From the IMG/VR virus record IMGVR_UViG_3300021425_002620: a stretch of DNA of 64,000 nucleotides. The stretch is one strand, 5' to 3'. How positions within the stretch are numbered: position 1 is the stretch's first letter; every line of letters starts with the position of its first letter. Both the position numbers and the translations under genes were made by a program. Below are positions 5,236 to 61,845 of this stretch, one piece after another. The notes beneath the pieces are model-generated. The model did no database searches, was not told the origin of the DNA, and was given only the letters and a program-made list of their open reading frames with translations. The DNA is from a virus (lineage: Duplodnaviria; Caudoviricetes).

Positions 5236-6271
5236 TAATTACAGTATGTATTTTATAATCTAATTCTTGATTAAATTCTAATAGATGATATGTTTTAGTA
5301 TTTGCATGATACCCTATTACTTTTAGTAAATGATTGTGTATAATAGGTCTTCCTAATATATATTCTTTTAAGTATAATTCTTTAACTACAGTTCCGTGTA
5401 CATTAATTTTTAAAATAGGACAATTAGTTGTTCCAACAGGTATGAATACAGCATGTGTATTATATCGTATACCTGATTTAAATTGGTACTTGTTATCAAA
5501 TTCAAGTCCTATATCAAAGTTAGTAGACTGTTTGGTTGTAGTATCAAATATTAATCCCCAATTACCATTGTATGGAGCTGCTATAATTTTGTCATGTATC
5601 AAAACACCGCAATTATATTTTTTAGCAAAATCTTTGCACTGAGTTTTGTACACTTTCATTTCTTTTGTTTCGGTATTAAACTCTATAACTTCATTTAGAC
5701 CTGCGGTTTCTCCAAATGGTAATGCGTACAATGTATTACCTACAACAATAATGTCACTATACTTTTGCGTTATAGAATTATTGATTCCTGCTATTGGGTA
5801 ACTGTTAATTTTTTTGCCGTCAAATTCTAATAATAAATTATAATTAGAATCGTTACTGTATGGCATACTCCAGTAACTACCGTTACAATAAACAGTACCT
5901 ATATGTAAGTTTGTCCCTTGTATAGGCATTTTAATAAATTCAACATCATTGTTAAGACATAATGCAAATTTGCTACCAAAGCTAAATGCTGTTTCATTAT
6001 TAGATGCTAGACTATAATATTGACTACTGTCTGTGTCTATGCTGTAATATTTAGGTTTGTAGTTTTTAATTTGTATAACAGAATTATGTGTAACTAACCA
6101 TATATCGTTTTTAACAACTTTGCATACATTTATTTTGCTTATTTTATCTAATGCTATATTTCTATTTTTATTTAAAATTTTAAATTTAGGCTTGTCTGCA
6201 AGTATTGAAACCAAGTCGTTCTTGTATTGACAGGCAATCGAATCTAAGTAATTTGGCTCTATATGCGGCAT
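5213..6271 (-). CDS. Putative beta-propeller repeat protein
   Basis: Four or more ~45-aa repeats ending in hydrophobic-x-P-(Y/F/V)-G/S (YWSMPYS, LYALPFG, IIAAPYN, AVFIPVG); ATG at 6271 chosen because of upstream TAAATA box. Confidence 0.5.
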   Translation of the reverse strand: MPHIEPNYLDSIACQYKNDLVSILADKPKFKILNKNRNIALDKISKINVCKVVKNDIWLVTHNSVIQIKNYKPKYYSIDTDSSQYYSLASNNETAFSFGSKFALCLNNDVEFIKMPIQGTNLHIGTVYCNGSYWSMPYSNDSNYNLLLEFDGKKINSYPIAGINNSITQKYSDIIVVGNTLYALPFGETAGLNEVIEFNTETKEMKVYKTQCKDFAKKYNCGVLIHDKIIAAPYNGNWGLIFDTTTKQSTNFDIGLEFDNKYQFKSGIRYNTHAVFIPVGTTNCPILKINVHGTVVKELYLKEYILGRPIIHNHLLKVIGYHANTKTYHLLEFNQELDYKIHTVITNETYDL

Positions 6272-6276
6272 AAGTA

Positions 6277-6283
6277 TATTTAA
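6277..6283 (-). promoter_or_regulatory. T4-type late promoter box, leaderless arrangement
   Basis: TTAAATA then 5 nt (tactt) then ATG at 6271. Confidence 0.6.
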
Positions 6284-6323
6284 CAACTGTTATTATACAA
6301 AATAGAAGATATGAAAACTTAAC

Positions 6324-7391
6324 ATGTTTACGTTTAATCAACTAGAAAACATACATTTAGAAATTACAAATCGGTGTCAAGCAAGCTGTCCTATGTGCAG
6401 CAGAAATGTTCACGGCGGTTTAGAAAACCCCTTAATTAAAAATCAAGACTGGACAGTAGCAGACTTTAAAAATATTTTAAATAATGAAGTATTACATCAA
6501 CTAAAAGGATTTTATTTTTGTGGAAACTTTGGTGATCCAATTATTAACAACGATCTAATAGAAATGTGTCAATACAGCACAGATATTAATCCTAATTTAT
6601 ATATTAGAATACATACTAACGGCGGCGCAAGAAATACCGACTGGTGGAAAAGATTAGCAAAAGCGTTACCGCCAGCGCATAATGTTATTTTTGCAATTGA
6701 CGGATTAGCAGACACACATAGTTTATATCGAGTTGGGACTAATTTTCATAAAGTTTTAGAAAATGCAAAGGCATTTATTAGTGCAGGCGGAACAGCTGAA
6801 TGGGCGTTTATTAAATTTAAGCACAATGAACATCAACTAGAAGAAGCAGAAGCATTGGCAAAAACACACGGCTTTGCTAGATTTACATATAAAGATAGTG
6901 CAAGATTTGTTGCTACTAAAGAGTTTCCGGTATATGATGCAAAAGGCAACATAACACGTTATTTAGAACCCCCTACTGGAAGTAAAATTAATCTGATTAC
7001 TCAAGATGTAATTGATAATTATAAAGATATAGTGGACGCTAGTGAAATAGATTGTTACGTAAAACAAACAAAAGAAATTTACATAGATGCATATAAAAAA
7101 ATTATGCCTTGTTGTTTTTTAGCAAGTATTCCTTACAACTATGCTGCTGATAATGACACTACTAAATCTATTAGAATTGAAATTGAACAACAATATTTTA
7201 AACTAATAAAAGATTTAGGAAATACAAGTGCATTAGAAAATAGTATAAAATCAGTAATAAATTCTGTTGCTTGGCAAACAGTATGGCAAAAATATTGGGG
7301 CACAGAAAAATTAATTACATGTGCAAGGACATGTGGAGTTAATAAACTTAGTAAGCCTAAAGATCAGTTTATTGAGCATACCGAACTATAA
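6324..7391 (+). CDS. Radical SAM/SPASM-domain protein
   Basis: CQASCPMC, GNFGDP, C-terminal CY...MPCCFL...CARTC. Confidence 0.9.
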   Translation: MFTFNQLENIHLEITNRCQASCPMCSRNVHGGLENPLIKNQDWTVADFKNILNNEVLHQLKGFYFCGNFGDPIINNDLIEMCQYSTDINPNLYIRIHTNGGARNTDWWKRLAKALPPAHNVIFAIDGLADTHSLYRVGTNFHKVLENAKAFISAGGTAEWAFIKFKHNEHQLEEAEALAKTHGFARFTYKDSARFVATKEFPVYDAKGNITRYLEPPTGSKINLITQDVIDNYKDIVDASEIDCYVKQTKEIYIDAYKKIMPCCFLASIPYNYAADNDTTKSIRIEIEQQYFKLIKDLGNTSALENSIKSVINSVAWQTVWQKYWGTEKLITCARTCGVNKLSKPKDQFIEHTEL

Positions 7392-7402
7392 AAAGGAAAA
7401 TA

Positions 7403-11708: not shown

Positions 11709-12972
11709 AAGGAGTAAACTCTGGATTTGTAGAAAGAAAGTCTTGGTCTCTAGTAACATCGAGTCTACGATTAAATTCTATACAATCTTTCCAATGTGTA
11801 TTATACATACACTTTGCTTGTAAAAAATTAATATTATCTTGTATTTGTTGTAGTGTTACAGTTTTTAATAAATCATGTTGTTGTACTAGAGGATAGTTTA
11901 ACACCTCGGTTTTCATTTGCTCTAAACGTTTTACTATTTGCTTCTTTAATGCAGGCGGCAATACTTGCGCCGATAATGACATAGGATAGTTAACACGATG
12001 CGAATAAAACACAATACCCATAGTGTTAATAAAGTAGTCAATTACCCGATCAATCTGCATAATGTTGTTTGCTTGTACAGTAAATGCACCAACTACGCGA
12101 CTTACATTAGGAAAACTTTGAAATACTTTTACATTTTTTTCTACTTCTTCAAACTTGCCATTGCCTCTAATGTACTCATATACATCGTGTATGCCGTCTA
12201 TGCTTACGTTTACAGCAATGCTTTTAAACTTAGGCCAATAGTCGTGTATAGTGCGTCCGCCTTTTATACCTAGTGTAGTGCCGTTTGTAGCATACTTTAG
12301 TTCTATGTTTTTACCATACTCTGCAAGTCTATCTAGTATCTTGTAATGATATGGATCCATCAGAGGCTCACCGCCTGCAAACTCTACACGTCTAAAATAC
12401 GGTAAAAGTTTTTCAAAACTTGACCACCAATTATCACTATTGTCAAATGGTCCAATATATTGTCCTGGTTTGTTTACTAGTGCATCTACTGTAGGAATAA
12501 GGTAGTTGTTTTCTTTTTTATAAAACTCTGTAACTTGGTCCCAGTCTTTCCAGCTAGTACTATCTAGTGGGTTACACATACGACATTTTAAATTACACAA
12601 GTTGTTTAGTTTAATTTCCATTGTAGGAAGCTCAAAAGGCATGCTGTAATCGTCGTCTAAAGCGTCTAATGCATCAGGGTATAAGTTGACCCTAGCTTCT
12701 GGTATTACCCCTGCTGTATGACGCTGTCGTAAGCTCTGTACACCCTGATCTTCGAGGTCAAAGCACGGTTTACATACATCTGGACGCTCGTCATTTAGTA
12801 CTTGACGGCGTACTTCGCGCATAGCATCGCCATTCCAAACTTCTTCTAAACTCTCGTTTTGAATCCAGCCAATAGGTTGGCTACGGCAACAAACTTTAAT
12901 TGCACCATCTTCTCGTGTTGCTAATCCAGTAAATGGATGCATACAAAATGTACAACTATTTGACTTTGCCAA
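11701..12972 (-). CDS. Radical SAM protein with N-terminal SPASM/twitch-like domain (paralog of 7403..8794)
   Basis: FCMHPF...KVCC...CKPC then CNLKCRMC and AGGEP. Confidence 0.9.
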   Translation of the reverse strand: MAKSNSCTFCMHPFTGLATREDGAIKVCCRSQPIGWIQNESLEEVWNGDAMREVRRQVLNDERPDVCKPCFDLEDQGVQSLRQRHTAGVIPEARVNLYPDALDALDDDYSMPFELPTMEIKLNNLCNLKCRMCNPLDSTSWKDWDQVTEFYKKENNYLIPTVDALVNKPGQYIGPFDNSDNWWSSFEKLLPYFRRVEFAGGEPLMDPYHYKILDRLAEYGKNIELKYATNGTTLGIKGGRTIHDYWPKFKSIAVNVSIDGIHDVYEYIRGNGKFEEVEKNVKVFQSFPNVSRVVGAFTVQANNIMQIDRVIDYFINTMGIVFYSHRVNYPMSLSAQVLPPALKKQIVKRLEQMKTEVLNYPLVQQHDLLKTVTLQQIQDNINFLQAKCMYNTHWKDCIEFNRRLDVTRDQDFLSTNPEFTPYV

Positions 12973-13633
12973 AAGCCCACTCCCTTTCTAGACACCAAAA
13001 GCATTTCCCGCATATTGGAACAGAATCACCCGGTGTATATGTTTTATAATTCAAACCTTCAAATTCTCCTTCGCAACTACGAGTAATATCTAATAAGTCT
13101 AGAATATCGTGTTTGTAATATTGTTTGATAATCCAGTCTTTCTTAGTATACACGAAAGGGTGACAAATGTCAATACCGTCGTGAATAAAATGTGGCTCAA
13201 TATGTCCTTCATCTCGTTCTTTTACTCTACCTTCAAACTTAACATCTGGATTTAAATTTACTCCACCGTACAATGCATTTAACTTATACTTGTGTGCAAT
13301 GTATTCGTTATGTGATCGCAATATAATTCTGTTACCTGGCTTCATTTTGCCATACTCATCTTGTATAAGATATTCAGTTGGCTCTTCTAGTTCTGGCGGC
13401 ACTAAATTTTTATGATGATAAAAGCAGTTGTCAAAGTTTTCTTTAAACCAAGCAACAACATTTTCAGAAATATGCTCTGCCCAAGGGCGAGTTTTCCACA
13501 TTCTTATCTGTGTATTAAAATGTATGTCAGCATTAGTTTGTGAACAAATTAAAAATGCAAGAAGGGCACTATCTGCGCCACCGCTAAGACTAATACCTAT
13601 ACGGTTCCACTCCTGGTTCAGATACAAGTTCAT
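12956..13633 (-). CDS. QueC-like PP-loop ATPase (7-cyano-7-deazaguanine synthase superfamily)
   Basis: SLSGGADS PP-loop at the N-terminus; C-terminal TRSC...CGKCFWC zinc motif. Confidence 0.7.
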   Translation of the reverse strand: MNLYLNQEWNRIGISLSGGADSALLAFLICSQTNADIHFNTQIRMWKTRPWAEHISENVVAWFKENFDNCFYHHKNLVPPELEEPTEYLIQDEYGKMKPGNRIILRSHNEYIAHKYKLNALYGGVNLNPDVKFEGRVKERDEGHIEPHFIHDGIDICHPFVYTKKDWIIKQYYKHDILDLLDITRSCEGEFEGLNYKTYTPGDSVPICGKCFWCLEREWAFGKVK

Positions 13634-13638
13634 GCAAA

Positions 13639-13645
13639 TATTTAT
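13639..13645 (-). promoter_or_regulatory. T4-type late promoter box, leaderless arrangement
   Basis: ATAAATA then 5 nt (tttgc) then ATG at 13633. Confidence 0.65.
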
Positions 13646-13688
13646 GTACTAAATATTACATTATACACATTATTGGCAAAGGGCTAGT

Positions 13689-14351
13689 ATGCTACAAACA
13701 TTACCATATACAGTTGATTTAAAACTTCTTAAAGAGGCACAGTGTTCCATTCCTTCTGTAGATTCTAAACTAACAATTAATCAGCCAACAGGTAATTTTT
13801 TCTATGACCCTTGGGAGATTAAAGAAGAATTTAAAGGCACAGTTTGGGAGAAAATATTAAGTACATTACCTTTAGATCTTGGCGAAGCAAGAATTATTGT
13901 ACTTGGTAACGGAACAACTTATATGTCGCATACTGATATAGATGATAGATATCATCTAAGTCTTAAAGGACAATATTCTTTTTTAATTAGTATAGACGAT
14001 GAAAAAATGTATCCTACAGTTGCAGACGGACAATGGTACGAAATGAATACTGGTCTACGTCATGTAGCAGCAAATTTTGGATCGTATGAAAGAATTCAAC
14101 TTGTTATAAGAAAACTTTTAAATAATCCAACCTTAGAAAATTACACATCTGTAACAATTAAACCAATATGCAAAAATCCTAGATTTGAGTTTGACGATAT
14201 CGTTAGTCCGTGGCTAAACAAAATAAACAAACAACATGTAATGTCAAATTTTAAAATACTAAACGACGGCGTCAGTTTTAATTTAGATTCTAGTTTAGTT
14301 AATAAATTAGATTTTATTCCTACAGATAAATTTAAGGTAATAGTAGAATGA
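13689..14351 (+). CDS. 2OG-Fe(II) oxygenase, Asp/Asn beta-hydroxylase-like
   Basis: HTD...RYHL...WYEMNT.LRHVAAN.G..RIQLV facial triad pattern. Confidence 0.7.
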   Translation: MLQTLPYTVDLKLLKEAQCSIPSVDSKLTINQPTGNFFYDPWEIKEEFKGTVWEKILSTLPLDLGEARIIVLGNGTTYMSHTDIDDRYHLSLKGQYSFLISIDDEKMYPTVADGQWYEMNTGLRHVAANFGSYERIQLVIRKLLNNPTLENYTSVTIKPICKNPRFEFDDIVSPWLNKINKQHVMSNFKILNDGVSFNLDSSLVNKLDFIPTDKFKVIVE

Positions 14352-18778: not shown

Positions 18779-19404
18779 ATTAAGTCCTCAAAATCTAATA
18801 AATCTTCAAATTCAAAATTAGTTATTCCTTCATCAAGACCTGCTCTAATAATTAACACTGTTCGTATCTCTTTTGAATTATTAGTTACTCCGTGATATGT
18901 ATCTCCTCGCATCAAAGTAACGTTATCAGCGGTTACACTTGCAATAGGATTTAACAAAGAATCATCTTTTACCATCGAAATTGTATAGCCGTATAATGGA
19001 GGTTTATTATTTTTTTGGATTATTTTAAAAACGTTGTCGTCTTTAATATCTGCACGATCGAACCAATGAGTAGTTGCATGTTCATAATTTTTAATTGGAA
19101 CATTGATAACAATCTTTTGCGAAATATCGTCATCGCCGTCTAAATGAATTTGAAATTTTGTTTCTGGAGGAATAAACAAAATATTGATATACTGCAACGG
19201 CATTTTTAATCTAGGCATTAACCAATTTTTAAGGACAGGAAAGTCTTCTATGTTTAGTATAGGTCTGCAAAACGAGCCATGACTAGTAGTTAGAGCTTGT
19301 TGTATTTCTGAACTAGTAATTTCTATATTTTTATCGATATAATCTAGTACTTCTTTTTGAATTTCGGGTAGTTCTTCTACTTGTAGTTTTTGATAGTATC
19401 TCAT
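18775..19404 (-). CDS. 2OG-Fe(II)/cupin oxygenase-like protein
   Basis: FQIHLD ... NVPI ... YHGVTN...IRTVLII. Confidence 0.6.
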   Translation of the reverse strand: MRYYQKLQVEELPEIQKEVLDYIDKNIEITSSEIQQALTTSHGSFCRPILNIEDFPVLKNWLMPRLKMPLQYINILFIPPETKFQIHLDGDDDISQKIVINVPIKNYEHATTHWFDRADIKDDNVFKIIQKNNKPPLYGYTISMVKDDSLLNPIASVTADNVTLMRGDTYHGVTNNSKEIRTVLIIRAGLDEGITNFEFEDLLDFEDLI

Positions 19405-23604: not shown

Positions 23605-24345
23605 GTGCAAGAGAGTGCAGAAGAATTTTTAAAACAGTTAAAGAACGATTTGCATAGATATATTGATGCATTCAAAGAGAAAACTAGAGATTTTAAAGTA
23701 GGTCATATAGAAGATATTGATAAGTTTTTTGACGAATATTTAGGAAAACTATTTGATAATAAAACCGACCAAAGAATTTTTGATTCTATCAAAACTTTAA
23801 GGTTTCTCGAGCCACATCATGTAGATAACTGTAAAGCAATACTTGATCGTATGAGTTTACTAGAACAACTACCAAAAAATGCTGTAGTAGCAGAAATAGG
23901 TGTTGATAGAGGTCGGTTTGCAGAACGCATATACGAAGTAACACAACCACGAAAGCTACATCTTATTGATATTTTTCAATTTGATTATCAATTAGAATCA
24001 ATAAACAATATACTAGGCAAAAAAGAAAACATAGAGATACATCAAGTAGACTCTGCAGAAGCAGGAAATTTGTTTGATGACGATTATTTTGACTGGATCT
24101 ATATAGATACTGATCATACATATGAAAGAACTAAAGCAGAACTAAATGCATTTGCAAATAAAATTAAACCAGGAGGTTATATATCAGGTCACGACTACTT
24201 TCAAGTTGGTATATCAAACGGGTTTTCATACGGTGTAATGAGTGCAGTACACGAGTTTGTAGTTATTAATGACTGGAAACTATATGCAGTTACACTAGAA
24301 CCTTTAGAAAATCAAAGTTTTGTTATACAAAAGCCAAATAACTAA
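23605..24345 (+). CDS. Class I SAM-dependent methyltransferase (Methyltransf_24-like)
   Basis: VAEIGVDRG, LIDIF, DWIYIDTDHTYE, IKPGGYISGHDY. Confidence 0.85.
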   Translation: MQESAEEFLKQLKNDLHRYIDAFKEKTRDFKVGHIEDIDKFFDEYLGKLFDNKTDQRIFDSIKTLRFLEPHHVDNCKAILDRMSLLEQLPKNAVVAEIGVDRGRFAERIYEVTQPRKLHLIDIFQFDYQLESINNILGKKENIEIHQVDSAEAGNLFDDDYFDWIYIDTDHTYERTKAELNAFANKIKPGGYISGHDYFQVGISNGFSYGVMSAVHEFVVINDWKLYAVTLEPLENQSFVIQKPNN

Positions 24346-25106
24346 ATCTTATAATACTCTAAAGTTTCAATATTATCCCATATCTGCTCGCCCATTGTAT
24401 CGCATGTTCTATTGAACTCGTCGACAAACTTAAACACATTATCAACAGGAAGTGTTTTTAATATGTCTAATCGTGCGTTCCACCATTTTGTTTCTAAAAG
24501 CATTTCTTTTACTTTATCGGGAAATCTATCTCTAATAATTTTATTTACTCCACCTACAATAGTATAAGGTGAAACATCTTTAGTAATTACAGCGTTAGCA
24601 GCAATAACAGCACCGTTGCCAATCGTAACACCTGGCATTACAATAATGTTGTCGCCTAGGTATACATCATTACCTATTATAACAGGGCGACCGTTCATTT
24701 CTTTTACATCTGTTTGACTTCTACTAATGTTTAGCATAGCAAGTTCTTTGTCTGTATAATTACTCTGGTTAGCCATTATAGTATCTGGATTAATACTGAC
24801 GCCTGAAAAGTTATGCATACCAGCAGCAATAGTACAGCGATATCCTATACCACTATGTCTGCCCATAAAAAAGTTATCTCGCATATAACCACCATCTCTA
24901 ATACTAGAATATGCTCCGATAAAGATTGTATTTGGTTCGGAAGTAAAATTAGGACAATCAACCTTACAGCCTTTTTCAAATAAAATATTATTTAAAAATG
25001 AAATATTCTCTGTACGTATTTTATGTTCTTCTGTTGTAGTTATGGTTTGATCTGCAGATAATTTCTTTTGTTTAAAGGATTCTAATTTATCTTCTATACC
25101 TTTCAT
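24342..25106 (-). CDS. Hexapeptide-repeat O-acetyltransferase, CatB/Vat-like
   Basis: VIIGNDVYLG...MPGVTIGNGAVIAANAVITKDV.PYTIVGG and LLETKWWN. Confidence 0.85.
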   Translation of the reverse strand: MKGIEDKLESFKQKKLSADQTITTTEEHKIRTENISFLNNILFEKGCKVDCPNFTSEPNTIFIGAYSSIRDGGYMRDNFFMGRHSGIGYRCTIAAGMHNFSGVSINPDTIMANQSNYTDKELAMLNISRSQTDVKEMNGRPVIIGNDVYLGDNIIVMPGVTIGNGAVIAANAVITKDVSPYTIVGGVNKIIRDRFPDKVKEMLLETKWWNARLDILKTLPVDNVFKFVDEFNRTCDTMGEQIWDNIETLEYYKI

Positions 25107-25111
25107 AAATC

Positions 25112-25139
25112 TATTTATAAAAAAACAGGCAGATAAATA
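25112..25139. promoter_or_regulatory. Back-to-back divergent T4-type late promoters, both leaderless
   Basis: Minus: TATAAATA (25119-25112), 5 nt, ATG 25106; plus: ATAAATA (25133-25139), 5 nt, ATG 25145. Confidence 0.7.
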
Positions 25140-25144
25140 TAATT

Positions 25145-25705
25145 ATGGACTGGACAAAAATTAAAGCAGCTACTATTGATTTAGATGTTGATACAAACCG
25201 ATTAGAAAATGAATTAAAGAATATCCCTAACGATCGATGGGGTTCTTATATTCACCAATCGGGTCATGAATGGAAGAGTATGTTCATTAACAAAAATTCT
25301 ACAGAAGTTTTTAAAGATTTTAAAACTGCTAAAATGATACCCCATAGCGATTGGTATTGGGATGAAACTTTAGACACTCCGTATTTAAAAGAATTAGTAG
25401 AGTCGTTACCTATGAAAAATATTGGCATGATTAGGGCATTTATTTTAAATGGTCCTCTTGTAATGCATACAGATAGTAACGAAACTACTCCAGTTGAATT
25501 AAATTATAATTTAGGTTTAACCATTGCAACTAAAATGGAAGGTCCTATGCAAATGGCCGGCTGTGGACCTATTGAAGGTTATAATGTATTGTTTAATGAT
25601 TCTATAGAGCACGGATTTCCAAACGGTGTTGGCGAGCAAATTAGTTTAAGAATATTTGGAGATTTTGACTACGATAAATTTAAGGTAACACGCATATATG
25701 AATAG
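25145..25705 (+). CDS. 2OG-Fe(II)/cupin oxygenase-like protein
   Basis: LVMHTD ... LFNDSIEHG...ISLRIFG. Confidence 0.6.
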   Translation: MDWTKIKAATIDLDVDTNRLENELKNIPNDRWGSYIHQSGHEWKSMFINKNSTEVFKDFKTAKMIPHSDWYWDETLDTPYLKELVESLPMKNIGMIRAFILNGPLVMHTDSNETTPVELNYNLGLTIATKMEGPMQMAGCGPIEGYNVLFNDSIEHGFPNGVGEQISLRIFGDFDYDKFKVTRIYE

Positions 25706-26602: not shown

Positions 26603-28129
26603 ATGCATAATAACATAAAAAATATAACAATCGTTGGAGGTGGTACAGCAGGTTGGTTAGCAGCAGCCTGGTTTTCTAAATTTAATAAAAACTTAAAAAT
26701 AACACTGATTGAATCTCCTACTATTCCGCCTATTGGAGTAGGTGAAGCAGTTACTCCGCATGTTGCTATATTTTTTGAAAAACTTGGAATAAATGAAAAA
26801 GACTGGATGAAACATACAGGCGCAGTCTATAAGTATGCTAATAAATTTGTAAACTGGAATACTAACAAAAAAAGCGAATATTCTAGTTTTAATTATCCAT
26901 TAAATAGCTCTGTTTTGTTACGTGATATAGATCACGGATTAAATACTGATGATTTTATTACAAATGATATTAATACTGCTGATACATTTATGCACTTGTT
27001 AGCAACTGGAGAAATAGATAAATTTGACAAGTATTTTCACAGCCAATTCCCTTACATGGAAAATAATGTTGCTCCGTTTGATAACAATGATTATTTACTC
27101 AATAAAAATTATAGCTGGAGTCAGCATATAAACGCAGAACTAGCAGCTGAATATATAAGAGATAATGTTGCTATTCCTAATGGTGTAGAGCATATAAAAG
27201 CTAATGTTGCTAAAATTGTAAAAACTAATCAAGGCATTGACAAACTAATTTTAGATAATGGATCTATTAACCATGCAGATTTTTATATTGATGCTTCTGG
27301 CTTTAAAAGAATTTTAGCATCAGAATTAGAATGGAATTTTAAAGAATACAAAAACCAACCAATTAGATCTGCTTGGGTTTCGCAAACAGATTACAATGAT
27401 ATTGAATCTGAATTAGTTAACTATACACAAAGCATTGCTGAACCATTTGGATGGAGATTTAAAATAGGATTATATCACCGAATGGGTAATGGTTATTCTT
27501 ACAGTCCAGACCATTGTAGTGATGACATAGCTAAAGAATATTTTTTAAATCAATTATCAAATGTAAAAACTACTCCAAGAAAACTATCTTGGACTCCAGG
27601 AAGATTTGAAAATCCACTACAAGGTAATGTTGCAACTATAGGATTAAGTATTGGATTTATAGAAGCATTAGAAGCTACATCGCTTTTAATTATTACAGAA
27701 AGTATTAGAGAATTAAGTGAAGTCTTAAACAACAAAATGACTGTTGAAGAATTTAATAATCATACCAATAGAAAATTTGATATTATTGCTGATTTTATTT
27801 TGGTGCATTATACTTTAAGTGACAGAACCGATACTGAGTTTTGGAAAGATATGCATGAGCTTGGTAAAAAAGAAAATCATGCCGACTTAGTGTATGAATA
27901 TTTTAAAAAGTTAAAGTTTGGCCAAGGTAATGTGTTTCCTGATTTTATGTGGGGGCAAGTTGCACATAGTTGGGGACAAAATTTAGACAAATGGATTTTA
28001 GATTCTAAATATAAAGATTTAATCGATTTAACTAAACTACACTATACTAATAGTAAATGCAAACATGAGATTGTTAGTAGGTCGCGTTTAACAAATTACA
28101 AATGGCTTACTCGATATATCTATAACTAG
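26603..28129 (+). CDS. Tryptophan-halogenase-family flavoprotein
   Basis: IVGGGTAGW, IGVGEA, conserved Lys in GAVYKYANKFVNW, YIDASGF, FIEALEATS; WxWxIP is replaced by WRFKIG. Confidence 0.85.
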   Translation: MHNNIKNITIVGGGTAGWLAAAWFSKFNKNLKITLIESPTIPPIGVGEAVTPHVAIFFEKLGINEKDWMKHTGAVYKYANKFVNWNTNKKSEYSSFNYPLNSSVLLRDIDHGLNTDDFITNDINTADTFMHLLATGEIDKFDKYFHSQFPYMENNVAPFDNNDYLLNKNYSWSQHINAELAAEYIRDNVAIPNGVEHIKANVAKIVKTNQGIDKLILDNGSINHADFYIDASGFKRILASELEWNFKEYKNQPIRSAWVSQTDYNDIESELVNYTQSIAEPFGWRFKIGLYHRMGNGYSYSPDHCSDDIAKEYFLNQLSNVKTTPRKLSWTPGRFENPLQGNVATIGLSIGFIEALEATSLLIITESIRELSEVLNNKMTVEEFNNHTNRKFDIIADFILVHYTLSDRTDTEFWKDMHELGKKENHADLVYEYFKKLKFGQGNVFPDFMWGQVAHSWGQNLDKWILDSKYKDLIDLTKLHYTNSKCKHEIVSRSRLTNYKWLTRYIYN

Positions 28130-28791
28130 ATTGTCTTCCAAGTATTGCCAGTTGCTTGTTCTCGTCTTGCATGGAAAGTCATTGTCTGCATATTAAAGAT
28201 ATCACCTGTTGAAAAACCATTTATAATGCATTCTGCTAAATGAGATGATGCATTTACTGGGTTAAACATTACGTGATGTTTATCTGCATTAACTGTAGTT
28301 ATATCAAACTTGCTTGAGTTATAACCTATAAATACAGGCGGCGGAAACTCTGTCATACCGTACCAGTTAGCAACAGTGCCAACACCTTTGCTTTTAAAGT
28401 CATCTATCATTTCTTGTGGAACTGGACCGCTTCCTGTAACCATGTATCTTACACAACTCATATCTAAGTCGCGCCATTCGTTATGTTCGGATAATATCTC
28501 CCAATGCCTAGGAATAAGTGCTATATAAGTTGGTTGAAACTCTTTGAACTTTGCTATATAATCTATAGCTTCGAACTTAGCACTTATAAGATTTGCTTTT
28601 GCTAGATAAGCAGGAAACGCAGTTACAGTATAATGTGCTATTGTATTTCCTGGAAATACATCTAGAACTCTGTCGTTGCTTGTAAGCCCTATTTCTTTAA
28701 TAGACAATCTTGCTAGTTCTTCTATCTCGTCCCAGCTGTGTGCAACCTTCTTAGGTGCCTTAGTGGTACCTGATGTAAGTAATGTTAGCAT
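28126..28791 (-). CDS. Minimal AMP-binding (ANL superfamily) adenylation protein
   Basis: LLTSGTTKAPK (A3), WYGMTE (A5), STGDIF (A7); lacks the usual N-terminal subdomain and the C-terminal lid. Confidence 0.7.
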   Translation of the reverse strand: MLTLLTSGTTKAPKKVAHSWDEIEELARLSIKEIGLTSNDRVLDVFPGNTIAHYTVTAFPAYLAKANLISAKFEAIDYIAKFKEFQPTYIALIPRHWEILSEHNEWRDLDMSCVRYMVTGSGPVPQEMIDDFKSKGVGTVANWYGMTEFPPPVFIGYNSSKFDITTVNADKHHVMFNPVNASSHLAECIINGFSTGDIFNMQTMTFHARREQATGNTWKTI

Positions 28792-28810
28792 ATTATTGTT
28801 TATCCGTCAC

Positions 28811-28837
28811 AAAAAAAGCCAATAGTTAAATTGGCTT
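28811..28837 (-). terminator. Rho-independent terminator after the fibre gene
   Basis: 8-bp perfect stem aagccaat/attggctt, 6-nt loop, followed on the minus strand by T7. Confidence 0.75.
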
Positions 28838-34548: not shown

Positions 34549-34835
34549 TCTTCTGTTACTACCTCTCCTTGTGTAAGTCTTACTACAAGAAAGTCCTTAC
34601 AGTCGAATAAATCGTTTAATTTTTTTGCAAGATTGTGTGCGTGACCAGGATTAGAAAAACTTGTTTTCTTATACTTTGGTCCAGGATAGTTTGTCAGTGA
34701 ATTTGAACTTTTAAGATTAAAAGGTTTATCTTTGTAGAACACAGCCCAGATAGCATCCGCATCTAGTACTTGTTCTGATCTATAATTCTTTTTGTTAATG
34801 TGCTCTAATAGCACCGTTGGCTTTGGTCTGCTCAT
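34545..34835 (-). CDS. Hypothetical protein
   Basis: 96-aa ORF downstream of a late promoter box. Confidence 0.7.
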   Translation of the reverse strand: MSRPKPTVLLEHINKKNYRSEQVLDADAIWAVFYKDKPFNLKSSNSLTNYPGPKYKKTSFSNPGHAHNLAKKLNDLFDCKDFLVVRLTQGEVVTEE

Positions 34836-34836: not shown

Positions 34837-34874
34837 ATATACGTAATCCTTTAATTAACTACGTATATATTTAT
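34837..34874 (-). promoter_or_regulatory. Late promoter box overlapping a 9-bp hairpin that encloses the RBS
   Basis: ATAAATA (34874-34868); ATATACGTA (34868-34860) and TACGTATAT (34845-34837) are perfect complements flanking AAGGA. Confidence 0.6.
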
Positions 34875-34899
34875 CTCTTTAAACAGTTATCTACGTGCT

Positions 34900-39284: not shown

Positions 39285-39290
39285 TTTTAT

Positions 39291-39374
39291 CTCCGATGTT
39301 TAGGCAGTGGATTGCCGTGTATACTGCAAGCAATTCATTATATACAGTATACACTTATTTAGGTTTTTTGTCAA
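39291..39374 (-). promoter_or_regulatory. folE/queE promoter with nested TAAATA box and structured leader
   Basis: TTGACA (39374-39369), 17 bp, TATACT (39351-39346); TAAATA 39361-39356; 10-bp inverted repeat 39317-39326/39345-39354; GGCA-ATCCAC-TGCC hairpin 39316-39303 before CGGAG. Confidence 0.75.
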
Positions 39375-43238: not shown

Positions 43239-43691
43239 TTATGCCTTTGGATAAAAAATGGAACAGCCGTTTTCGTTGTCTTCAGCGACACTAATCTCTA
43301 CAAATCGGCCGGGGTACTTTGTAGAAATCTCTTGATACAAGTCATCTGCAATCATCTCACACGACTTGTGATTTAACTCTAGTACGCCTTCGACGTCATA
43401 GAGTCGTTGCATCCAGCGTTTAAACTGAATGAATTCAATATCGCGATCGTTATGAAATACTTCAATACGAACACGAAAGTGAAAGATATGACGATGCGGG
43501 ATACCAAGGAATGATACATCATCCCAATCGCCAGTTGCTAGTTTAGGATCAGTGTCAGCACCTGGGTACATATGTACACCTTCTTTGCTAAAGGTTACCC
43601 AAATACTACGTTCTGCGTTTTTCATTATGTCTTTCATACTTTCTTCTTTTAATCTACGACCCATATAGTTGTGATAGGATTCACGTTGCAT
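43239..43691 (-). CDS. QueD-like T-fold protein with LxxxHRHxF motif (DpdL-type)
   Basis: F..EG.H.YP...FLGIPHRHIFH.RV...DIEF...K...SCEMIA...ISVAEDNENG mirrors QueD layout with HRH for HGH and no active-site Cys before it. Confidence 0.7.
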   Translation of the reverse strand: MQRESYHNYMGRRLKEESMKDIMKNAERSIWVTFSKEGVHMYPGADTDPKLATGDWDDVSFLGIPHRHIFHFRVRIEVFHNDRDIEFIQFKRWMQRLYDVEGVLELNHKSCEMIADDLYQEISTKYPGRFVEISVAEDNENGCSIFYPKA

Positions 43692-43698
43692 TGTTTAT

Positions 43699-43727
43699 AG
43701 TATACTTTCATTTAATAACTTTGTCAA
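43699..43727 (-). promoter_or_regulatory. sigma70-type promoter, probably leaderless, inside the 3' end of the upstream gene
   Basis: TTGACA (43727-43722), 17 bp, TATACT (43704-43699), 7 nt, ATG 43691. Confidence 0.75.
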
Positions 43728-49057: not shown

Positions 49058-51730
49058 TCAATCTCCAAAGTCAAACAAACTACTAAATGTGTTGTGTTGT
49101 TTAGTATCTTCTAGATCATAATTCAACACACCAATCAAATTATCAAGTTTGTTATCAATAATTGTTTCTGCCATTGCTGCATCATCAAATGGCAATTCTT
49201 TAAACCACTCAGGTAATCTTAGCTCATCTGTTGGATAAGCAACACTTGTATAACCTAAGGGATTCTGTTTTAATTTACAAACAATAACTTTCATACCGTC
49301 AACGATTTCTTGTGAGTATTTGTCACCGTTCATACGTTTTAGTGTATTCCAATTAATGCTTGCCCGCACGTGGCCCGGCATATTTGCCTTGCCTTGTTTT
49401 TGTTCAAGACGCTGATAGTGTCCAATCTTGTTTGCACGTTTAGGCGAACCTTTTTCCCAACCTGGCATCTCTTGAAACTCTTTACGGAACTGTGTAATAC
49501 GTTCTAGTACTTCAGATTCTTCTGCATCTGTAAGCACCATTAAAAGTACTTCGCTTAAAAACTTTTGCATAAACACAGGAGTGTCTGACCTACGTAAGTC
49601 TAAGCCCATTGCCTTTACTTTACCAGGCTTACCGTCTTGATCTGTTCTAAAACCTTCATTGTCAACTACTAGTGCCGCATATCGCTTCTTAGTAATATAA
49701 AGACCACTCTGAGCAACAATTTCTCTACCTGCCGCAATAACGTCACTTCTGCTCTTTGGACAATGAAATGCTTGCAACATAAACTTTTCAAATGTTGTAT
49801 TTGCTTGTTCACAAACTTGATCATATAGTGCAATACATTTTTCAGTATTCCATTCAAGTTTACCAGTTCCTACGTCTTCCTGTAGTACAGGCCATGCACT
49901 AAAGTAAACAGAGTCAGTGTCGCCATATATTACTGCTTTACCGGTATGATCGTAATCACCTGTAATTACATTGTTAACTTCAGCACTCATATGTTTAACA
50001 ATTTGTCTACCAGTTAGTGTAGTTGACTGACCAATACGTTTATCGAAAAATCTACAGCCCGGATTCAAAATAGCACCATACAAGCTGTTCAAGTTAATCT
50101 TTTTAACTAACTGTCGCTTGTCCCAGTATTCTATTTCTGCATCAAGATTTGCGTCTTTTGCTTTTTTAAGTTTCTTTTGTAGTTCTTTACGTTCTGCGTA
50201 CCAGCGTTTAAGAATACCCGGAATAACACCTTCAAACTCTGTAGTAAAGATTGTACCATTTGCACTAAGCATCCAAGGCATCTGACTGTCAAATATAAGT
50301 TGATAAATCTCTGCACCACTTAGTACATCTGATCTACCATCCTCCCAATCAACAGTTAGCGCAACATCTTTACGTTGCTCCATTACTGCTTCATATTCTT
50401 CAGTTGAAAATCGTCCTTCCCAACTACCTGCGAAGCTCTTCTTCTTAAGAGTCATATCTTCGTGTACACGAGATTCAGTTATTTCAGGACGTATTTGTCC
50501 AACAATAGTTTCCGGTGCCATATTTAAAGCACGAATCACTGAAGGATATAGTGAGTTTAAGTCCATTGAACCAATCCACTTGTGCAGTCCTTTTTTTGGA
50601 AATGCAACATATGCTCCAGCAGCCTGTGTATTTTCTGTGTCGTCACGTTTGGGGCGATTAGGAACCTGTAGTCCTCTGTTATGTGCTTCGTTAATAATAC
50701 CTTGCTCTGTAACGGCAACAGCACCCATTGTTGTTTGAAGCATCACAGTATTTTCGTGTGCAATACTGTTACTAAGATCAATAAATCGTAGTTTCTTGTC
50801 TAGTTTGTCCAGTAGTGCAGTATCCTGAATGTTATATTCAATAAACTTACGGAAGTCGTTGTTATATAACTGATCCAGCGTACCTTCATATGGCACTTTG
50901 TTTTCGCCTACTTCAATCTCACCAATCGCATCTAATCGATATGAGTGACGTTCTTCATATGTATACTTACGATACAGTTCTAATGAGTCTAAGTGTACAC
51001 GACCTACTAAATCAAATGTAACTGCTTGCTTCCCATATTTTTCGTATTCACGCTTCTTAGGCAGTTGTCCCCATAGGCAAAACCGCCTTGTGTCATCTTT
51101 ACTGAGTACACGACTAGTTCTGTTTACAGTATACGGAATATCATAACCTTCACTGTTCCAACCACTTAGTATGTCAGCATCTTCAATTAGCGTTAAGAAG
51201 GTATCAATCATATCACCTTCACGTTCAAACAACATTACATTATCAATGCCTTCTAATTCTTTTTGTGCCTGATCCATAGTTAGTGTTTTAGGAGGAACAG
51301 CAAGACACACCATTGTTTCTAACCACTGCAAATACACAGAGATAGATGTAATTGGCATAAAAGGATCGCTTGGATCAGCAAAGCCACGCTCTGGATCAAA
51401 GTCAGTCTCAATATCGAAAAATGCAATATTTAGTTTAGGTGCATCTTGGTTAAGATAGTTTTCACTAAGACATTGAAAAAGTGGATTGATGTCGCTTTCG
51501 AATAAGTTCTTGCCTTTGTTAATAGCAACTTCTTTTCGAAAGTCTTTTGTGTTTTTACAAACAATACGTGATAGAGGATCTCCGTAAATACTTTTGTATT
51601 TGCCTCGAGGATCTTCGTAATAAAATGTATATTTGGCAGGATATTCTGTAAAGTGTCTTTTGCCATCGCGTCTTTCTACAACACGAATAATATCCTGATC
51701 GCGATCGAACATCGCATCTACGTATGGCAT
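49058..51730 (-). CDS. DNA polymerase family B (T4 gp43-like)
   Basis: ExoI FFDIETD, ExoII GWNS..YD, motif A DLNSLYPS, motif B KINLNSLYG, motif C YGDTDS. Confidence 0.97.
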   Translation of the reverse strand: MPYVDAMFDRDQDIIRVVERRDGKRHFTEYPAKYTFYYEDPRGKYKSIYGDPLSRIVCKNTKDFRKEVAINKGKNLFESDINPLFQCLSENYLNQDAPKLNIAFFDIETDFDPERGFADPSDPFMPITSISVYLQWLETMVCLAVPPKTLTMDQAQKELEGIDNVMLFEREGDMIDTFLTLIEDADILSGWNSEGYDIPYTVNRTSRVLSKDDTRRFCLWGQLPKKREYEKYGKQAVTFDLVGRVHLDSLELYRKYTYEERHSYRLDAIGEIEVGENKVPYEGTLDQLYNNDFRKFIEYNIQDTALLDKLDKKLRFIDLSNSIAHENTVMLQTTMGAVAVTEQGIINEAHNRGLQVPNRPKRDDTENTQAAGAYVAFPKKGLHKWIGSMDLNSLYPSVIRALNMAPETIVGQIRPEITESRVHEDMTLKKKSFAGSWEGRFSTEEYEAVMEQRKDVALTVDWEDGRSDVLSGAEIYQLIFDSQMPWMLSANGTIFTTEFEGVIPGILKRWYAERKELQKKLKKAKDANLDAEIEYWDKRQLVKKINLNSLYGAILNPGCRFFDKRIGQSTTLTGRQIVKHMSAEVNNVITGDYDHTGKAVIYGDTDSVYFSAWPVLQEDVGTGKLEWNTEKCIALYDQVCEQANTTFEKFMLQAFHCPKSRSDVIAAGREIVAQSGLYITKKRYAALVVDNEGFRTDQDGKPGKVKAMGLDLRRSDTPVFMQKFLSEVLLMVLTDAEESEVLERITQFRKEFQEMPGWEKGSPKRANKIGHYQRLEQKQGKANMPGHVRASINWNTLKRMNGDKYSQEIVDGMKVIVCKLKQNPLGYTSVAYPTDELRLPEWFKELPFDDAAMAETIIDNKLDNLIGVLNYDLEDTKQHNTFSSLFDFGD

Positions 51731-53973: not shown

Positions 53974-54465
53974 TTAGTTTCCGCCTTTGTTTGGACTTAT
54001 ATTTTTTGCTTTAATATTTTTTGCTGAAATCTTCTTTGTAGTAACTGCTTGTTCAGTTGCTTTTTTCTCAGCTAGTTTAGCATGTAAAGTATCTTTATAT
54101 TCTGATTCAGTCTTGCGAAGTTTCTTTTTACCACGCTTGCCACTTGCTTTTGCAGCATGTACCGCCTTACGATGTGCATCAGATTTAAATTTTCCTTCTG
54201 CAACTTCTTCACCTAGCTCACCTGTTGCTTCTTCGTAGTCTAGATGATGATATACACTGCCGATATAATCTGCTGACTTAGTAATTTTTGATTGAACCCA
54301 ACCTTCTAAGCCTTGTTCTTCGGATACACCTTTAAGCATGTCATGTAGTTTGATTGCATATTTTGCAATTTTATAAAGGTCTGAACGAGCCATTTGTACT
54401 TCGTGATCACGCTCTGCACGATCAGCTAGTTCGCCTAAACCTTCTTGTATTTCTGTTTTGTTCAT
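53974..54465 (-). CDS. Putative virion-internal protein
   Basis: MNKTEIQE-G N-terminus, VAE-G junction, Lys-rich tail. Confidence 0.55.
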   Translation of the reverse strand: MNKTEIQEGLGELADRAERDHEVQMARSDLYKIAKYAIKLHDMLKGVSEEQGLEGWVQSKITKSADYIGSVYHHLDYEEATGELGEEVAEGKFKSDAHRKAVHAAKASGKRGKKKLRKTESEYKDTLHAKLAEKKATEQAVTTKKISAKNIKAKNISPNKGGN

Positions 54466-54489: not shown

Positions 54490-54496
54490 TATTTAT
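54490..54496 (-). promoter_or_regulatory. T4-type late promoter box
   Basis: ATAAATA over the upstream stop, leader with GGAG. Confidence 0.55.
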
Positions 54497-54828
54497 CTTT
54501 TGATAGGTTTGCCGCCCATGATATTATTTTTAACATCTAATGCATTTTTAGCAGTACCATCTGTATTTTTAACTTGTGGTGCTTTCGGCGCTCCGTATTT
54601 GCCCTTCTTTGTAGATTTAGCATGTGCATATGTTGGATTAACAACTGCGGCTATATTACCTGATGATGTTGCTCCTGCTGTTGCATCTTCTTTAACGTCT
54701 TCTGCATTACAATTACAGTGAGGACAGTCTGGTGGACATTTACAATCTTCTCTTTTTACGTCTGCTCCACAACATTTATCTGAACAATGTGTATCTCTTT
54801 TTTGTTCTAGTAATTCGCTTATTTTCAT
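54493..54828 (-). CDS. Putative virion-internal protein with Cys-rich segment
   Basis: MKISELLE-Q N-terminus, HCSDKCC...CKCPPDCPHCNC, VKE-DATAG junction. Confidence 0.6.
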   Translation of the reverse strand: MKISELLEQKRDTHCSDKCCGADVKREDCKCPPDCPHCNCNAEDVKEDATAGATSSGNIAAVVNPTYAHAKSTKKGKYGAPKAPQVKNTDGTAKNALDVKNNIMGGKPIKR

Positions 54829-54837
54829 TTTTCTTTC

Positions 54838-57929: not shown

Positions 57930-57933
57930 TATC

Positions 57934-59369: not shown

Positions 59370-59370
59370 A

Positions 59371-59940: not shown

Positions 59941-59949
59941 GATATTTCC

Positions 59950-60738
59950 TTATAAGCCTTGGAGTTGTGTTACTAAATCATTTAGTGCATCTGATATACT
60001 TTGTGGATCTGTTTCGTCACCAATAGTTACGCTAAGGGTTGAAAAATCAACACCACTGCCGCCGCCACCTAGTAGTCCTGTATTATCTGTTAGTTCGCTT
60101 ATGTCTGTTGGTACTGTAGGCGCTGTATATTCAAATGTAAATACACCTGTAGTATTATCATATGATAAACTTGCACCAGCATCGGAAGTATCTGTTACAC
60201 TAAGATCAGTTAGTGCAATGCCACCTCCTGCACCAGTTTGATCTGCTACCCACTGGTAATCTGCCCCAGTCCAACTTAGTATTTGACCGCTAGTTGCAGT
60301 GCTTGTATTTAAGAGACTATTTACACTAGAATCTCCATAACTAGCAGCATCAGGATCAACATTTACAAATGAACCACTTGCATTATCAAACGCAAGTATT
60401 TGCCCGTCGCTTACACTAGTAATGTTTACATCTGCTAAATCTTCTAATTGACTAGGAACACTTGGAGCACCTGTTAAGTCTGCATATAGTCCACTAAACA
60501 ATGTAGGTCTATTAAGTAAATTATTATAATCGCCATTAAATGTATTTGCTGTAAGAGCATATACAGAAAGGTCTGGTTTGTTTGTTAGGCTGTTGTAGTC
60601 ACCATCAAAGGATTGAAGGCCACCTAGATTAACATAGACTTCATCAAAATTATCATTTACTTTACTAAATGCTGTGCGGAGACTTTCACCGTCGCCTGCA
60701 TAGTCTGTTGATCCTATATTAATTATTTTTTGTGCCAT
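59950..60738 (-). CDS. Baseplate/fibre structural protein with gp9/gp10-like N-terminus
   Basis: INIGS....GDGESLRTAF.KVNDNFDEVY resembles T4 gp9/gp10 N-termini; three F(D/N/S)G.Y..L...P repeats. Confidence 0.7.
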   Translation of the reverse strand: MAQKIINIGSTDYAGDGESLRTAFSKVNDNFDEVYVNLGGLQSFDGDYNSLTNKPDLSVYALTANTFNGDYNNLLNRPTLFSGLYADLTGAPSVPSQLEDLADVNITSVSDGQILAFDNASGSFVNVDPDAASYGDSSVNSLLNTSTATSGQILSWTGADYQWVADQTGAGGGIALTDLSVTDTSDAGASLSYDNTTGVFTFEYTAPTVPTDISELTDNTGLLGGGGSGVDFSTLSVTIGDETDPQSISDALNDLVTQLQGL

Positions 60739-60749
60739 TCTTTACGTCC

Positions 60750-61172
60750 TTAATAGTTCAACATTATACTGTCAACTGTTCCGTTTGTCCAGTTTCCTAG
60801 TATTGCTCTAACCCAAACATAGTTTCCTACAAAATTATAGTTAGCATTTATATTACTACTAGAATACGAAAGATCAGTTAATGTAATACTTTCTCCTACC
60901 GATATAGCACCTGTTGTATCAACAGTTCCTTGTACACTTGTATTGGTTTGTAATGTAATATCAAACCAATCTCCTTCTGAAGGATCAACTTCTAATGACC
61001 CTTGCATCTTTATCTCTCCAGAAAATCCGTTTAAATTAATTTGGACAGTATGAAATCCGTCTGCACGGCCATAATATCCGTCAGCTTTAAACTTATCTCC
61101 AGTGTATGATTGTACTGTGCTATCATCTGGATGTGTTTGTGTTGGTACTATTGTTTTACTATTATTCGGCAT
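60750..61172 (-). CDS. Hypothetical beta-rich protein, probably structural
   Basis: ATG 61172 5 nt after ATAAATA; beta-strand rich composition. Confidence 0.65.
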   Translation of the reverse strand: MPNNSKTIVPTQTHPDDSTVQSYTGDKFKADGYYGRADGFHTVQINLNGFSGEIKMQGSLEVDPSEGDWFDITLQTNTSVQGTVDTTGAISVGESITLTDLSYSSSNINANYNFVGNYVWVRAILGNWTNGTVDSIMLNY

Positions 61173-61176
61173 ACTA

Positions 61177-61845
61177 TTATTTATCAATATCTTGCTTACA
61201 TACTAATTTATCTATTCGCCGAATAGAAGGTGCAATCATTAATTTTATAAGATTTAAAACACGTTCGTCACGAGCATAAAAATAATAATTTGCACAGTGT
61301 AGAGATTCACGAATTGCATCTCTACATACAACACCCATTTTTACTTTATCTTCGTTTTTATCTAACCAAGTGTTAAATCCAGGATCAACATTATAGTCTC
61401 CAAATGTAATTTTATAGTCATAACCAGTATGTTCGTCAACTATAATTGTATTTGGCACAACATGTTTAACAAGTTCTTTAGGCGGCGCCGAAAAACTTAT
61501 AGGATCAGAAATTTTAGTTGCAAATAATAATAACCAAGATTTGTCATTGCTGTATACATGTACACTAGGGTGCTCGATCCTTATTTTATAATCAACATTT
61601 GTATTTTTAAGTTCGTGATATATTGCAACACATTCATAAAATATATGAGGTTCTATAGTAAACTGACGGTAGCCGGTAGATCTAACTAACGGCATACCTT
61701 TTTCTGATCTATGATAAAGTTCGTCTAATACTTCTTTAGCATAATTAAAATTTTTATCTCTAAAAATTGTTGCTAGAGAGTTACGAAAAACAAATTTGTA
61801 AAGATATTTGTTATAGAACAGTTTATTTGATTCAGATTGTAACAA
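61177..61845 (-). CDS. Hypothetical protein
   Basis: 222-aa ORF overlapping the clpA stop. Confidence 0.7.
   Translation of the reverse strand: MLQSESNKLFYNKYLYKFVFRNSLATIFRDKNFNYAKEVLDELYHRSEKGMPLVRSTGYRQFTIEPHIFYECVAIYHELKNTNVDYKIRIEHPSVHVYSNDKSWLLLFATKISDPISFSAPPKELVKHVVPNTIIVDEHTGYDYKITFGDYNVDPGFNTWLDKNEDKVKMGVVCRDAIRESLHCANYYFYARDERVLNLIKLMIAPSIRRIDKLVCKQDIDK
61178..61184 (-). promoter_or_regulatory. T4-type late promoter box, leaderless arrangement
   Basis: ATAAATA then 5 nt (atagt) then ATG at 61172. Confidence 0.65.

Follow-up and report, generated by a model that had tools for sequence, protein, structure and literature searches.

An uncultured marine jumbo phage of about 350 kb, to which T4 is a distant relative, opens a set of its genes with an ATG codon at the very position where transcription is predicted to begin. 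The evidence comes from a 64-kb stretch of its DNA (IMG/VR virus record IMGVR_UViG_3300021425_002620), here called the window and always meant in its full length, and from the genomes of relatives. At eight sites in the window, the ATG follows either a T4-type late promoter box at a distance of five nucleotides (nt) or the -10 hexamer of a sigma70-type promoter at a distance of six or seven. We consider it probable, at roughly 0.78, that these genes are transcribed from T4-type late and sigma70-type promoters into leaderless mRNAs. Matters of observation, described in turn below, are the motif with its geometry, how it is conserved, its excess over whole genomes, the late genes with which it is associated and a gp55 homologue that a relative encodes.

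The window has a G+C content of 34.8% and is densely packed with phage genes. Positions 1-28800 form a tailoring-enzyme island (radical SAM/SPASM, tryptophan-halogenase family, hexapeptide acyltransferase and short AMP-binding-family proteins), and replication and virion genes fill the window beyond it. Its family-B DNA polymerase (gene 49058-51730, minus strand) is 42-50% identical to the polymerases of the jumbo phages Phosso, Atu_ph07, Vibrio phage 2.275.O and Rak2-like coliphages, and 88-94% identical to those of hundreds of IMG/VR contigs. Two related contigs, G1 (275 kb, polymerase 92% identical to that of the window) and G2 (200 kb, 90% identical), were fetched whole, and genome-wide spacer counts were made on both beside the window. 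A genome size near 350 kb is indicated by CheckV-type completeness and by a metagenome contig of 346,714 bp (Ga0222715_10000004, L164) that carries the G1 tail-tube gene at 100% identity; this contig probably represents the near-complete genome of G1.

The T4 late box occupies -13 to -6 (PMC1524935), as the initial annotation of this stretch had it, and with the box in that place five intervening nucleotides put the A of ATG at +1. All eight starts that the annotation had listed are present in the DNA, six of them on the minus strand. Each site is named below by the coordinate of the A of its ATG in plus-strand numbering. The six late-type sites, together with one terminator, are as follows.

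25132..25147 (+): late box GATAAATA at 25132-25139, N5, ATG at 25145; gene 25145-25705 (186 aa, function unknown), predicted to be leaderless
25104..25119 (-): late box TATAAATA at 25112-25119, N5, ATG at 25106; gene 24342-25106, hexapeptide-repeat acyltransferase
13631..13646 (-): late box CATAAATA, N5, ATG at 13633; gene 12956-13633, QueC-like PP-loop protein
6269..6284 (-): weaker box GTTAAATA, N5, ATG at 6271; gene 5213-6271 (352 aa, function unknown)
28789..28804 (-): variant box GATAAACA (TAAACA), N5, ATG at 28791; gene 28126-28791, short AMP-binding-family protein
61170..61185 (-): late box GATAAATA, N5, ATG at 61172; gene 60750-61172, virion-protein family
28811..28837 (-): intrinsic terminator, 8-bp stem (28837-28816) and T run, closing the upstream unit

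The absence of Shine-Dalgarno (SD) sequences from these starts is confirmed, none of the eight sites having an SD core in -18..-4. No downstream in-frame start with an SD occurs within the first 40 codons at any of them (0/8), and an upstream alternative start is absent at six. The N-termini of the site proteins are conserved as protein from the first codon on; in the 13633 protein the SGGxDS of the PP loop begins at residue 17, and in the 28791 protein the TSGTT adenylation motif begins at residue 6, both as expected for these N-termini. The latter protein (221 aa) covers profile positions 169-330 only and begins 5 residues before TSGTT; the same short form is kept in four relatives, and it is therefore not a fragment.

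The setting of several sites leaves little space for a promoter. The genes at 25106 and 25145 are divergent, with start codons 38 nt apart (gap 25107-25144), and gene 5213-6271 is divergent from gene 6324-7391. The terminator listed above ends 6 nt ahead of the box at 28804, so that gene 28126-28791 needs a promoter of its own in the remaining ~20 nt. The 61172 box overlaps the stop of gene 61177-61845, and the unit that it opens also includes the fibre-like gene 59950-60738. The initial annotation had described all of these sites as heads of the island's transcription units that are translated as leaderless messages. The leaderless reading is supported; the description as unit heads does not extend to all of them, since the promoters at 61172, 1726 and 43691 are internal and overlap the upstream gene's end, and two of the three (61172 and 43691) are outside the enzyme island.

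We counted the spacer (k) between TAAATA and a start codon under a strict rule, by which the ATG must be the first ATG of an open reading frame (ORF) of at least 60 aa. The results are given here for the window, its two relatives and T4.

Window: 5 cases at k=5, 0 at k=4, 0 at k=6; no other case in k=0-14
G1: 12 at k=5, 4 at k=4, 0 at k=6; almost none at k=6-14 and a wide hump starting at k=15
G2: 6 at k=5, 2 at k=4, 2 at k=6; almost none at k=6-14 and a wide hump starting at k=15
T4: 0 at each of k=4-6; a hump alone, at k=21-29

The distribution is thus bimodal in the window, G1 and G2: it peaks sharply at 5 nt, is almost empty from 6 to 14 nt and rises again to a hump at 15 nt or more. It takes the same form in HTVC008M (NC_020484), a cultured pelagimyophage whose SAR11 host is an alphaproteobacterium. 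Genes in the hump (k of at least 15) have an SD. Pooled over the window, G1 and G2, the raw matches number 35 at k=5 and average 11 at the other spacers (Poisson p = 6e-9), and a control with the pattern written backwards is flat. The predicted genome-wide excess of the 5-nt spacer is therefore present in the two related contigs and absent in T4, where the few raw matches at k=5 lie inside uvsW and mobB or at non-start positions. An unbiased tally of 6-mers by offset upstream of first-ATG starts places TAAATA at spacer 5 ahead of all SD hexamers and at the top of the list in the window, G1 and HTVC008M; only SD words rank when T4 and Atu_ph07 are scanned in this way. The peak is restricted to ATG, there being none for TAAATA-N5-GTG or TAAATA-N5-TTG. 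With a transcription start about 6 nt after the box, an empty zone at 6-14 nt would be expected, since it corresponds to leaders of 1-9 nt, too long for leaderless initiation and too short for an SD.

The same box also occurs before leadered genes that have an SD, as had been noticed, and three such cases serve as comparators.

54490-54497 (-): GATAAATA box; spacer of 24 nt to the ATG of gene 53974-54465, holding a GGAG SD; leadered late unit
34868-34875 (-): GATAAATA box; spacer of 32 nt to the ATG of gene 34545-34835, which has an SD
13648-13655 (+): CTAAATA box; spacer of 33 nt to the ATG of gene 13689-14351, which has an SD

To define the box, we compared three classes of TAAATA: copies 4-5 nt from an ATG (n=36, the predicted leaderless class), copies 15-40 nt upstream of SD-bearing starts (n=64, the leadered class) and all other copies (n=479). 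The first two share an extended consensus, GATAAATA, that the other copies lack. G stands at box position -2 in 50% of leaderless and 39% of leadered boxes (9% in the background), and A at -1 in 50% and 69% (15% in the background). Upstream of position -2 there is no conservation, so the box, which resembles T4 TATAAATA, is the sole conserved element. The five positions after it are low in G+C in leaderless and leadered classes alike; T4 late promoters require an A+T-rich segment downstream of the box (PMC2988020).

The box is associated with late genes. In G1 and G2, genes at the 4-5-nt spacer encode the terminase large subunit, the tail tube, virion structural proteins and tail-fibre-like proteins, and the terminase box of both contigs lies directly behind a terminator. 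In the window, the box precedes the virion-protein family gene and the fibre-like gene, and it serves the enzyme island too. A sigma factor of the gp55 family is encoded in G2 (ORF 104618-105439, minus strand; phrog_234, E = 8.6e-23) and matches by BLAST the gp55 of T4 (E = 1.5e-5) and of HTVC008M (E = 1e-10); the family had no match in G1, an incomplete contig.

Comparison with orthologous loci shows that the box and its distance from the ATG persist while the letters between them change. The divergent 25106/25145 region is kept in relatives at 56-67% amino acid identity, both boxes lying 5 nt from their ATGs with differing spacer letters. Orthologues of 25106 (L081-L084) keep TAAATA-N5-ATG. 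Those of 25145 in L082-L084 (56-62% identity) have CATAAATA-N5-ATG with other spacer letters; in L081 the gene stands inside an operon and has an SD instead of the box. In the 61172 family, GATAAATA-N5-ATG is invariant in 13 relatives at 39-52% identity, over seven different spacer sequences. At 28791, the four orthologues L081-L084 show a hairpin and T run followed by TAAATA-N4/5-ATG at the same place, which identifies the TAAACA of the window as a one-base variant of the box. For 13633, the exact TAAATA, at a distance of 4 or 5 nt from the ATG, is kept at 11 of 13 inspected orthologous loci (67-76% identity), and L116 has TAAGTA-N5-ATG, a variant; these loci are mostly back-to-back divergent box pairs in intergenic gaps of 27-40 nt. 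The tail-tube gene has GATAAATA-N5-ATG in 14 contigs at 55-58% identity. A metagenome scan with the G1 tail-tube protein yielded further orthologues and no contig that begins at the ATG. For gene 5213-6271, the orthologue search returned a C-terminal fragment only, with no N-terminus. Gene 13689-14351 (+) is leadered with an SD in the window, and its G2 orthologue (around 163254, +) has TAAATA-N5-ATG; the leadered and the predicted leaderless format thus interconvert between close relatives.

Divergent pairs of late boxes in gaps of 26-40 nt were seen at 25107-25144 of the window, near position 3000 of L116-L126 and at 18917-18942 of HTVC008M, and both flanking genes are predicted to be leaderless in each case. 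The two promoters of such a pair may compete, as two polymerases could hardly occupy one 38-nt gap at once.

A second and unrelated type of promoter shows the same placement of the ATG. The initial annotation had recorded a -10 hexamer followed by N6 or N7 and ATG at 1726 and 43691. Both are there, and both are in fact complete promoters with a perfect -35 element at 17-nt spacing; the window holds one more of this kind.

1691..1728 (+): TTGACA-N17-TATAGT-N6-ATG, ATG 1726 at the predicted +1; gene 1726-3687 (653 aa, function unknown)
43689..43727 (-): TTGACA-N17-TATACT-N7-ATG, ATG 43691 at or next to the predicted +1; gene 43239-43691 (150 aa)
39336..39374 (-): TTGACA-N17-TATACT-N7-ATG, the ATG opening an 11-codon mini-ORF ahead of the SD-led gene 38601-39284

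Three matches to TTGACA-N17-TAnnnT-N6/7-ATG in the window compare with 0.08 expected, and 0 of 100 shuffles reach three. The third of them opens a mini-ORF only, so an ATG at +1 is not always a gene start. In the orthologues of 1726 (46-47% identity), the geometry is kept and the letters differ: TAGACA-N17-TATAAT-N6-ATG in G1 and TTGACA-N17-TATAAT-N7-ATG in G2. About 30 relatives keep the 43691 layout, their ATG standing 6-9 nt behind the -10 hexamer. In three of them the upstream sequence is unrelated, so the TTGACA is more than the end of the upstream coding sequence. An in-frame Met10 of the 43691 protein is conserved in all relatives.

Taken as a mechanism, these features suggest that late genes would be read from minimal promoters consisting of one 8-bp box, consensus GATAAATA, the counterpart of T4 TATAAATA, which a gp55-type phage sigma factor recognises. 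In roughly a third of the exact-box late units, the box lies 5 nt (sometimes 4) before the ATG. Transcription would there begin at the A of the start codon and give an mRNA with neither a 5' leader nor an SD, presumably bound by 70S ribosomes directly at its 5'-terminal AUG. A smaller set of early or middle genes would follow the same design from canonical TTGACA-N17-TAnnnT promoters. A promoter that needs no -35 element fits into a 38-nt divergent gap, into ~20 nt behind a terminator and into the stop-codon region of the preceding gene. Both the position of the transcription start and leaderless translation itself are predictions from the DNA.

The start regions have properties that leaderless translation would favour. 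In Caulobacter, such translation needs an AUG and an unstructured 5' end, and it drops about two-fold per added leader base (PMC8459731). The mean minimum free energy (MFE) of the first 50 nt is -3.4 at the predicted leaderless starts, compared with -4.9 at other gene starts (p = 5e-4) and -6.6 at internal ATGs (p = 8e-9); in unfolding energy, the predicted leaderless starts differ significantly from internal ATGs only.

Several points weigh against leaderless expression. The gp55 homologue comes from the relative G2 and not from the window's own genome. An excess of TAAATA-N5-ATG within the window alone was not found: the raw count of 5 is within chance (2.6 +/- 1.5 expected, with 13 of 100 dinucleotide shuffles reaching 5); what departs from chance is that each of the five ATGs is the first of an ORF of 140-352 aa and that no other spacer from 0 to 14 yields such a start. 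At sites 6271 and 61172 the box contains a TTG, lacking an SD, that lies five codons upstream of the ATG, and 6271 is the least certain site of all, having the weaker box GTTAAATA and no orthologue for comparison. Among the relatives of 43691, L078 and L072 have the ATG too close to the -10 hexamer for +1, and these two may start at Met10. The lower 5' structure stems in part from a lower G+C content (0.32 vs 0.35). Finally, strong SD cores stand on 45-49% of the genes of the window phage, and the host therefore clearly uses SD-led initiation too.

One alternative accepts the box as a promoter and moves the start of transcription a few bases off the A of ATG, which would give leaders of 1-5 nt or, with a start downstream, translation from a later start codon. 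The choice of start site shifts by about 1 nt, 4- and 6-nt spacers exist beside 5, and both the 6-9-nt spacers of the sigma70-type relatives and the short distances in L078 and L072 speak for some looseness of this kind. We nevertheless consider a displaced start unlikely. The k=5 peak, sharp to one nucleotide, and its restriction to ATG fit selection for a 5'-terminal AUG; each added leader base would roughly halve leaderless translation (PMC8459731); and the first 40 codons offer no SD-bearing start downstream, while the N-termini are conserved from the first codon.

A different proposal takes TAAATA at -11 to -6 as an A/U-rich translation signal (an S1-binding enhancer or SD substitute) or as an RNA-processing site on longer transcripts. 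The 5-nt distance to the start codon does resemble SD-to-start spacing, and 61172, 1726 and 43691 stand within same-strand strings of genes, where read-through transcripts must also exist. This explanation is nonetheless quite improbable. Neither the 25107-25144 gap nor the space directly behind a terminator (28791; the terminase of G1 and G2) has room for another promoter to make the longer transcript. SD-bearing late genes have the same extended box 15-40 nt upstream of them; the box agrees with the T4 late consensus, and there is a gp55 homologue. The unrelated sigma70-type promoter places the ATG in the same way, and an SD-like signal would allow a range of spacings, not one.

Coincidence, arising from an A+T-rich genome and the first-ATG bias of ORF calling, could by itself account for the raw window count and is very improbable otherwise, being already contradicted by the pooled excess and its flat reversed-pattern control, by T4, which at similar G+C and with the same caller gives none, by spacing that is invariant in orthologues at 40-60% identity, and by HTVC008M, where all 7 inspected matches fall at independently annotated starts.

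Two further candidates were tried and rejected. A sigma70-type TTTATA-18-TATAAT at 25114-25143 would start transcription inside the gene, and the relatives lack it. The TAA of the box could be a mere upstream stop codon, except that the divergent and post-terminator sites have no upstream gene, and the relatives of 61172 end their upstream gene at other positions.

Leaderless expression from these promoters, which we prefer to the alternatives, gains further context from other phages. In HTVC008M we find 10 strict TAAATA-N5-ATG starts. The seven matches in the inspected region, all at independently annotated starts, belong to the genes for the tape measure, DNA end protector, head closure, baseplate tail-tube cap, an oxygenase, a CsgF-like protein and a cyclase. 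Like the window phage, HTVC008M has a divergent pair (26 nt) and cases of a terminator followed by a box; unlike it, HTVC008M has a 147-kb genome. Its DNA polymerase is 28% identical to that of the window, compared with 27% for T4, and is thus equally distant; the layout must then be either old and patchy or convergent. Over the whole HTVC008M genome, the leadered hump (k=15-40) is weak and the k=5 peak strong, so that most recognisable late boxes there may be of the leaderless kind.

No more than a weak k=5 peak, or none at all, was seen in T4, KVP40, the cyanophages Syn9, S-PM2 and P-SSM2, and the jumbo relatives Vibrio phage 2.275.O, Atu_ph07, Phosso and Turkey3. The layout is therefore not general to T4-like phages or to phages of Alphaproteobacteria, and its absence from Atu_ph07, a jumbo relative with an alphaproteobacterial host, argues against a purely host-driven explanation.

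Among known systems, T4 late transcription (gp55, gp33, gp45; TATAAATA) is like that of the window phage in its 8-bp A+T-rich box with the same core, the lack of a -35 element, the A+T-rich sequence downstream and the position of the box before virion genes, and a gp55 homologue occurs within the window phage's lineage. It differs in consensus (GATAAATA in the window lineage) and in spacing: T4 spacers cluster at 21-29 nt with an SD, whereas about a third of the exact-box units in the window lineage abut the ATG. In the Thermus phages YS40 and Lalka27a, most transcripts are leaderless and arise from a phage-specific late promoter (bioRxiv 10.64898/2026.04.20.719267). There too, the late promoter puts the start codon's A or G at the transcript's 5' end; the promoter itself is different (a TAGGGT -10 element with C at -25, read with another specificity factor), as is the host, Thermus, in which leaderless mRNAs are common. 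The leaderless ends of YS40 and Lalka27a have been mapped on RNA, whereas those of the window phage are predicted.

Leaderless mRNAs are frequent and efficiently translated in Alphaproteobacteria (PMC4117421), with 375 in Caulobacter crescentus and 171 in Sinorhizobium meliloti (PMC4117421, PMC8459731). They resemble the predicted phage messages in their 5'-terminal AUG, lack of an SD and unstructured 5' end, with a strong preference for AUG and zero leader; they differ in being host genes read from housekeeping promoters. The transcription starts of the jumbo phages phiKZ and AR9 have been mapped; leaderless transcripts were found in neither, and the untranslated regions of AR9 measure 26-491 nt. 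Both share with the window phage a large genome and phage-specific promoter classes, and they differ in using their own multisubunit RNA polymerases in place of a gp55-type sigma factor.

T4-type late promoters and leaderless phage mRNAs are each known; our literature search met with no description of T4-type late boxes fused to start codons, nor of this layout in HTVC008M. No other positional signal upstream of gene starts is as strong as TAAATA-N5 in the window, G1 and HTVC008M; it serves genes as central as those for terminase and tail tube, and it occurs in phages of the ocean's most abundant bacteria. One study reported that late promoters were not predictable in pelagimyophages (PMC7029224), which the proposed layout, if true, would explain. 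It would also supply a simple rule by which start codons and operon maps could be corrected across thousands of contigs of marine phages. A promoter reduced to a -10-like box lets transcription units pack into gaps of 26-40 nt. HTVC008M and its host, Ca. Pelagibacter ubique HTCC1062, are in culture, and the prediction is thus directly testable.

A broader proposal, possible although we regard it as doubtful, is that leaderless late messages are a deliberate, lineage-spanning strategy of abundant marine T4-like phages (the jumbo clade and the pelagimyophages), in which a third or more of the late units would bypass SD-dependent 30S initiation. The strategy might be coupled to IF-1, bS21 and transfer-messenger RNA (tmRNA), steering late ribosomes to AUG-first phage mRNAs.

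The initial annotation had further suggested that leaderless messages could be favoured when host translation is stressed or shut down, and that they might point to a host tolerant of such mRNAs. No more than indirect hints bear on these possibilities: the alphaproteobacterial host of HTVC008M, and the IF-1, bS21 and permuted tmRNA of relatives. Relatives of the window phage encode an IF-1 homologue (E = 1.6e-23) and a bS21 homologue (E = 7e-19), both above Pfam cut-offs; IF-1 is reported to stimulate leaderless translation in vitro (PMC9031893). The IF-1/bS21 homologue loci are these.

G1: 170674-170862 and 181826-181981 (L137, L135)
G3: L138 and L136

A phage initiator tRNA as a booster of leaderless translation was considered and rejected, since the CAT tRNA of G1 has a paired 1-72 end and resembles tRNA-Ile2. 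G1 further encodes a permuted two-piece tmRNA with a tag ending in AIAA, and ten tRNAs (L096 10771-11164, L098 4553-4629, L094 17737-19245).

Within the window, the region 39285-39374 (-), which holds the third sigma70-type promoter and its mini-ORF, contains an 8-bp inverted repeat, GTATACTG / CAGTATAC, that joins the -10 region to the mini-ORF. The region may encode a leaderless leader peptide or may form a hairpin specific to read-through transcripts.

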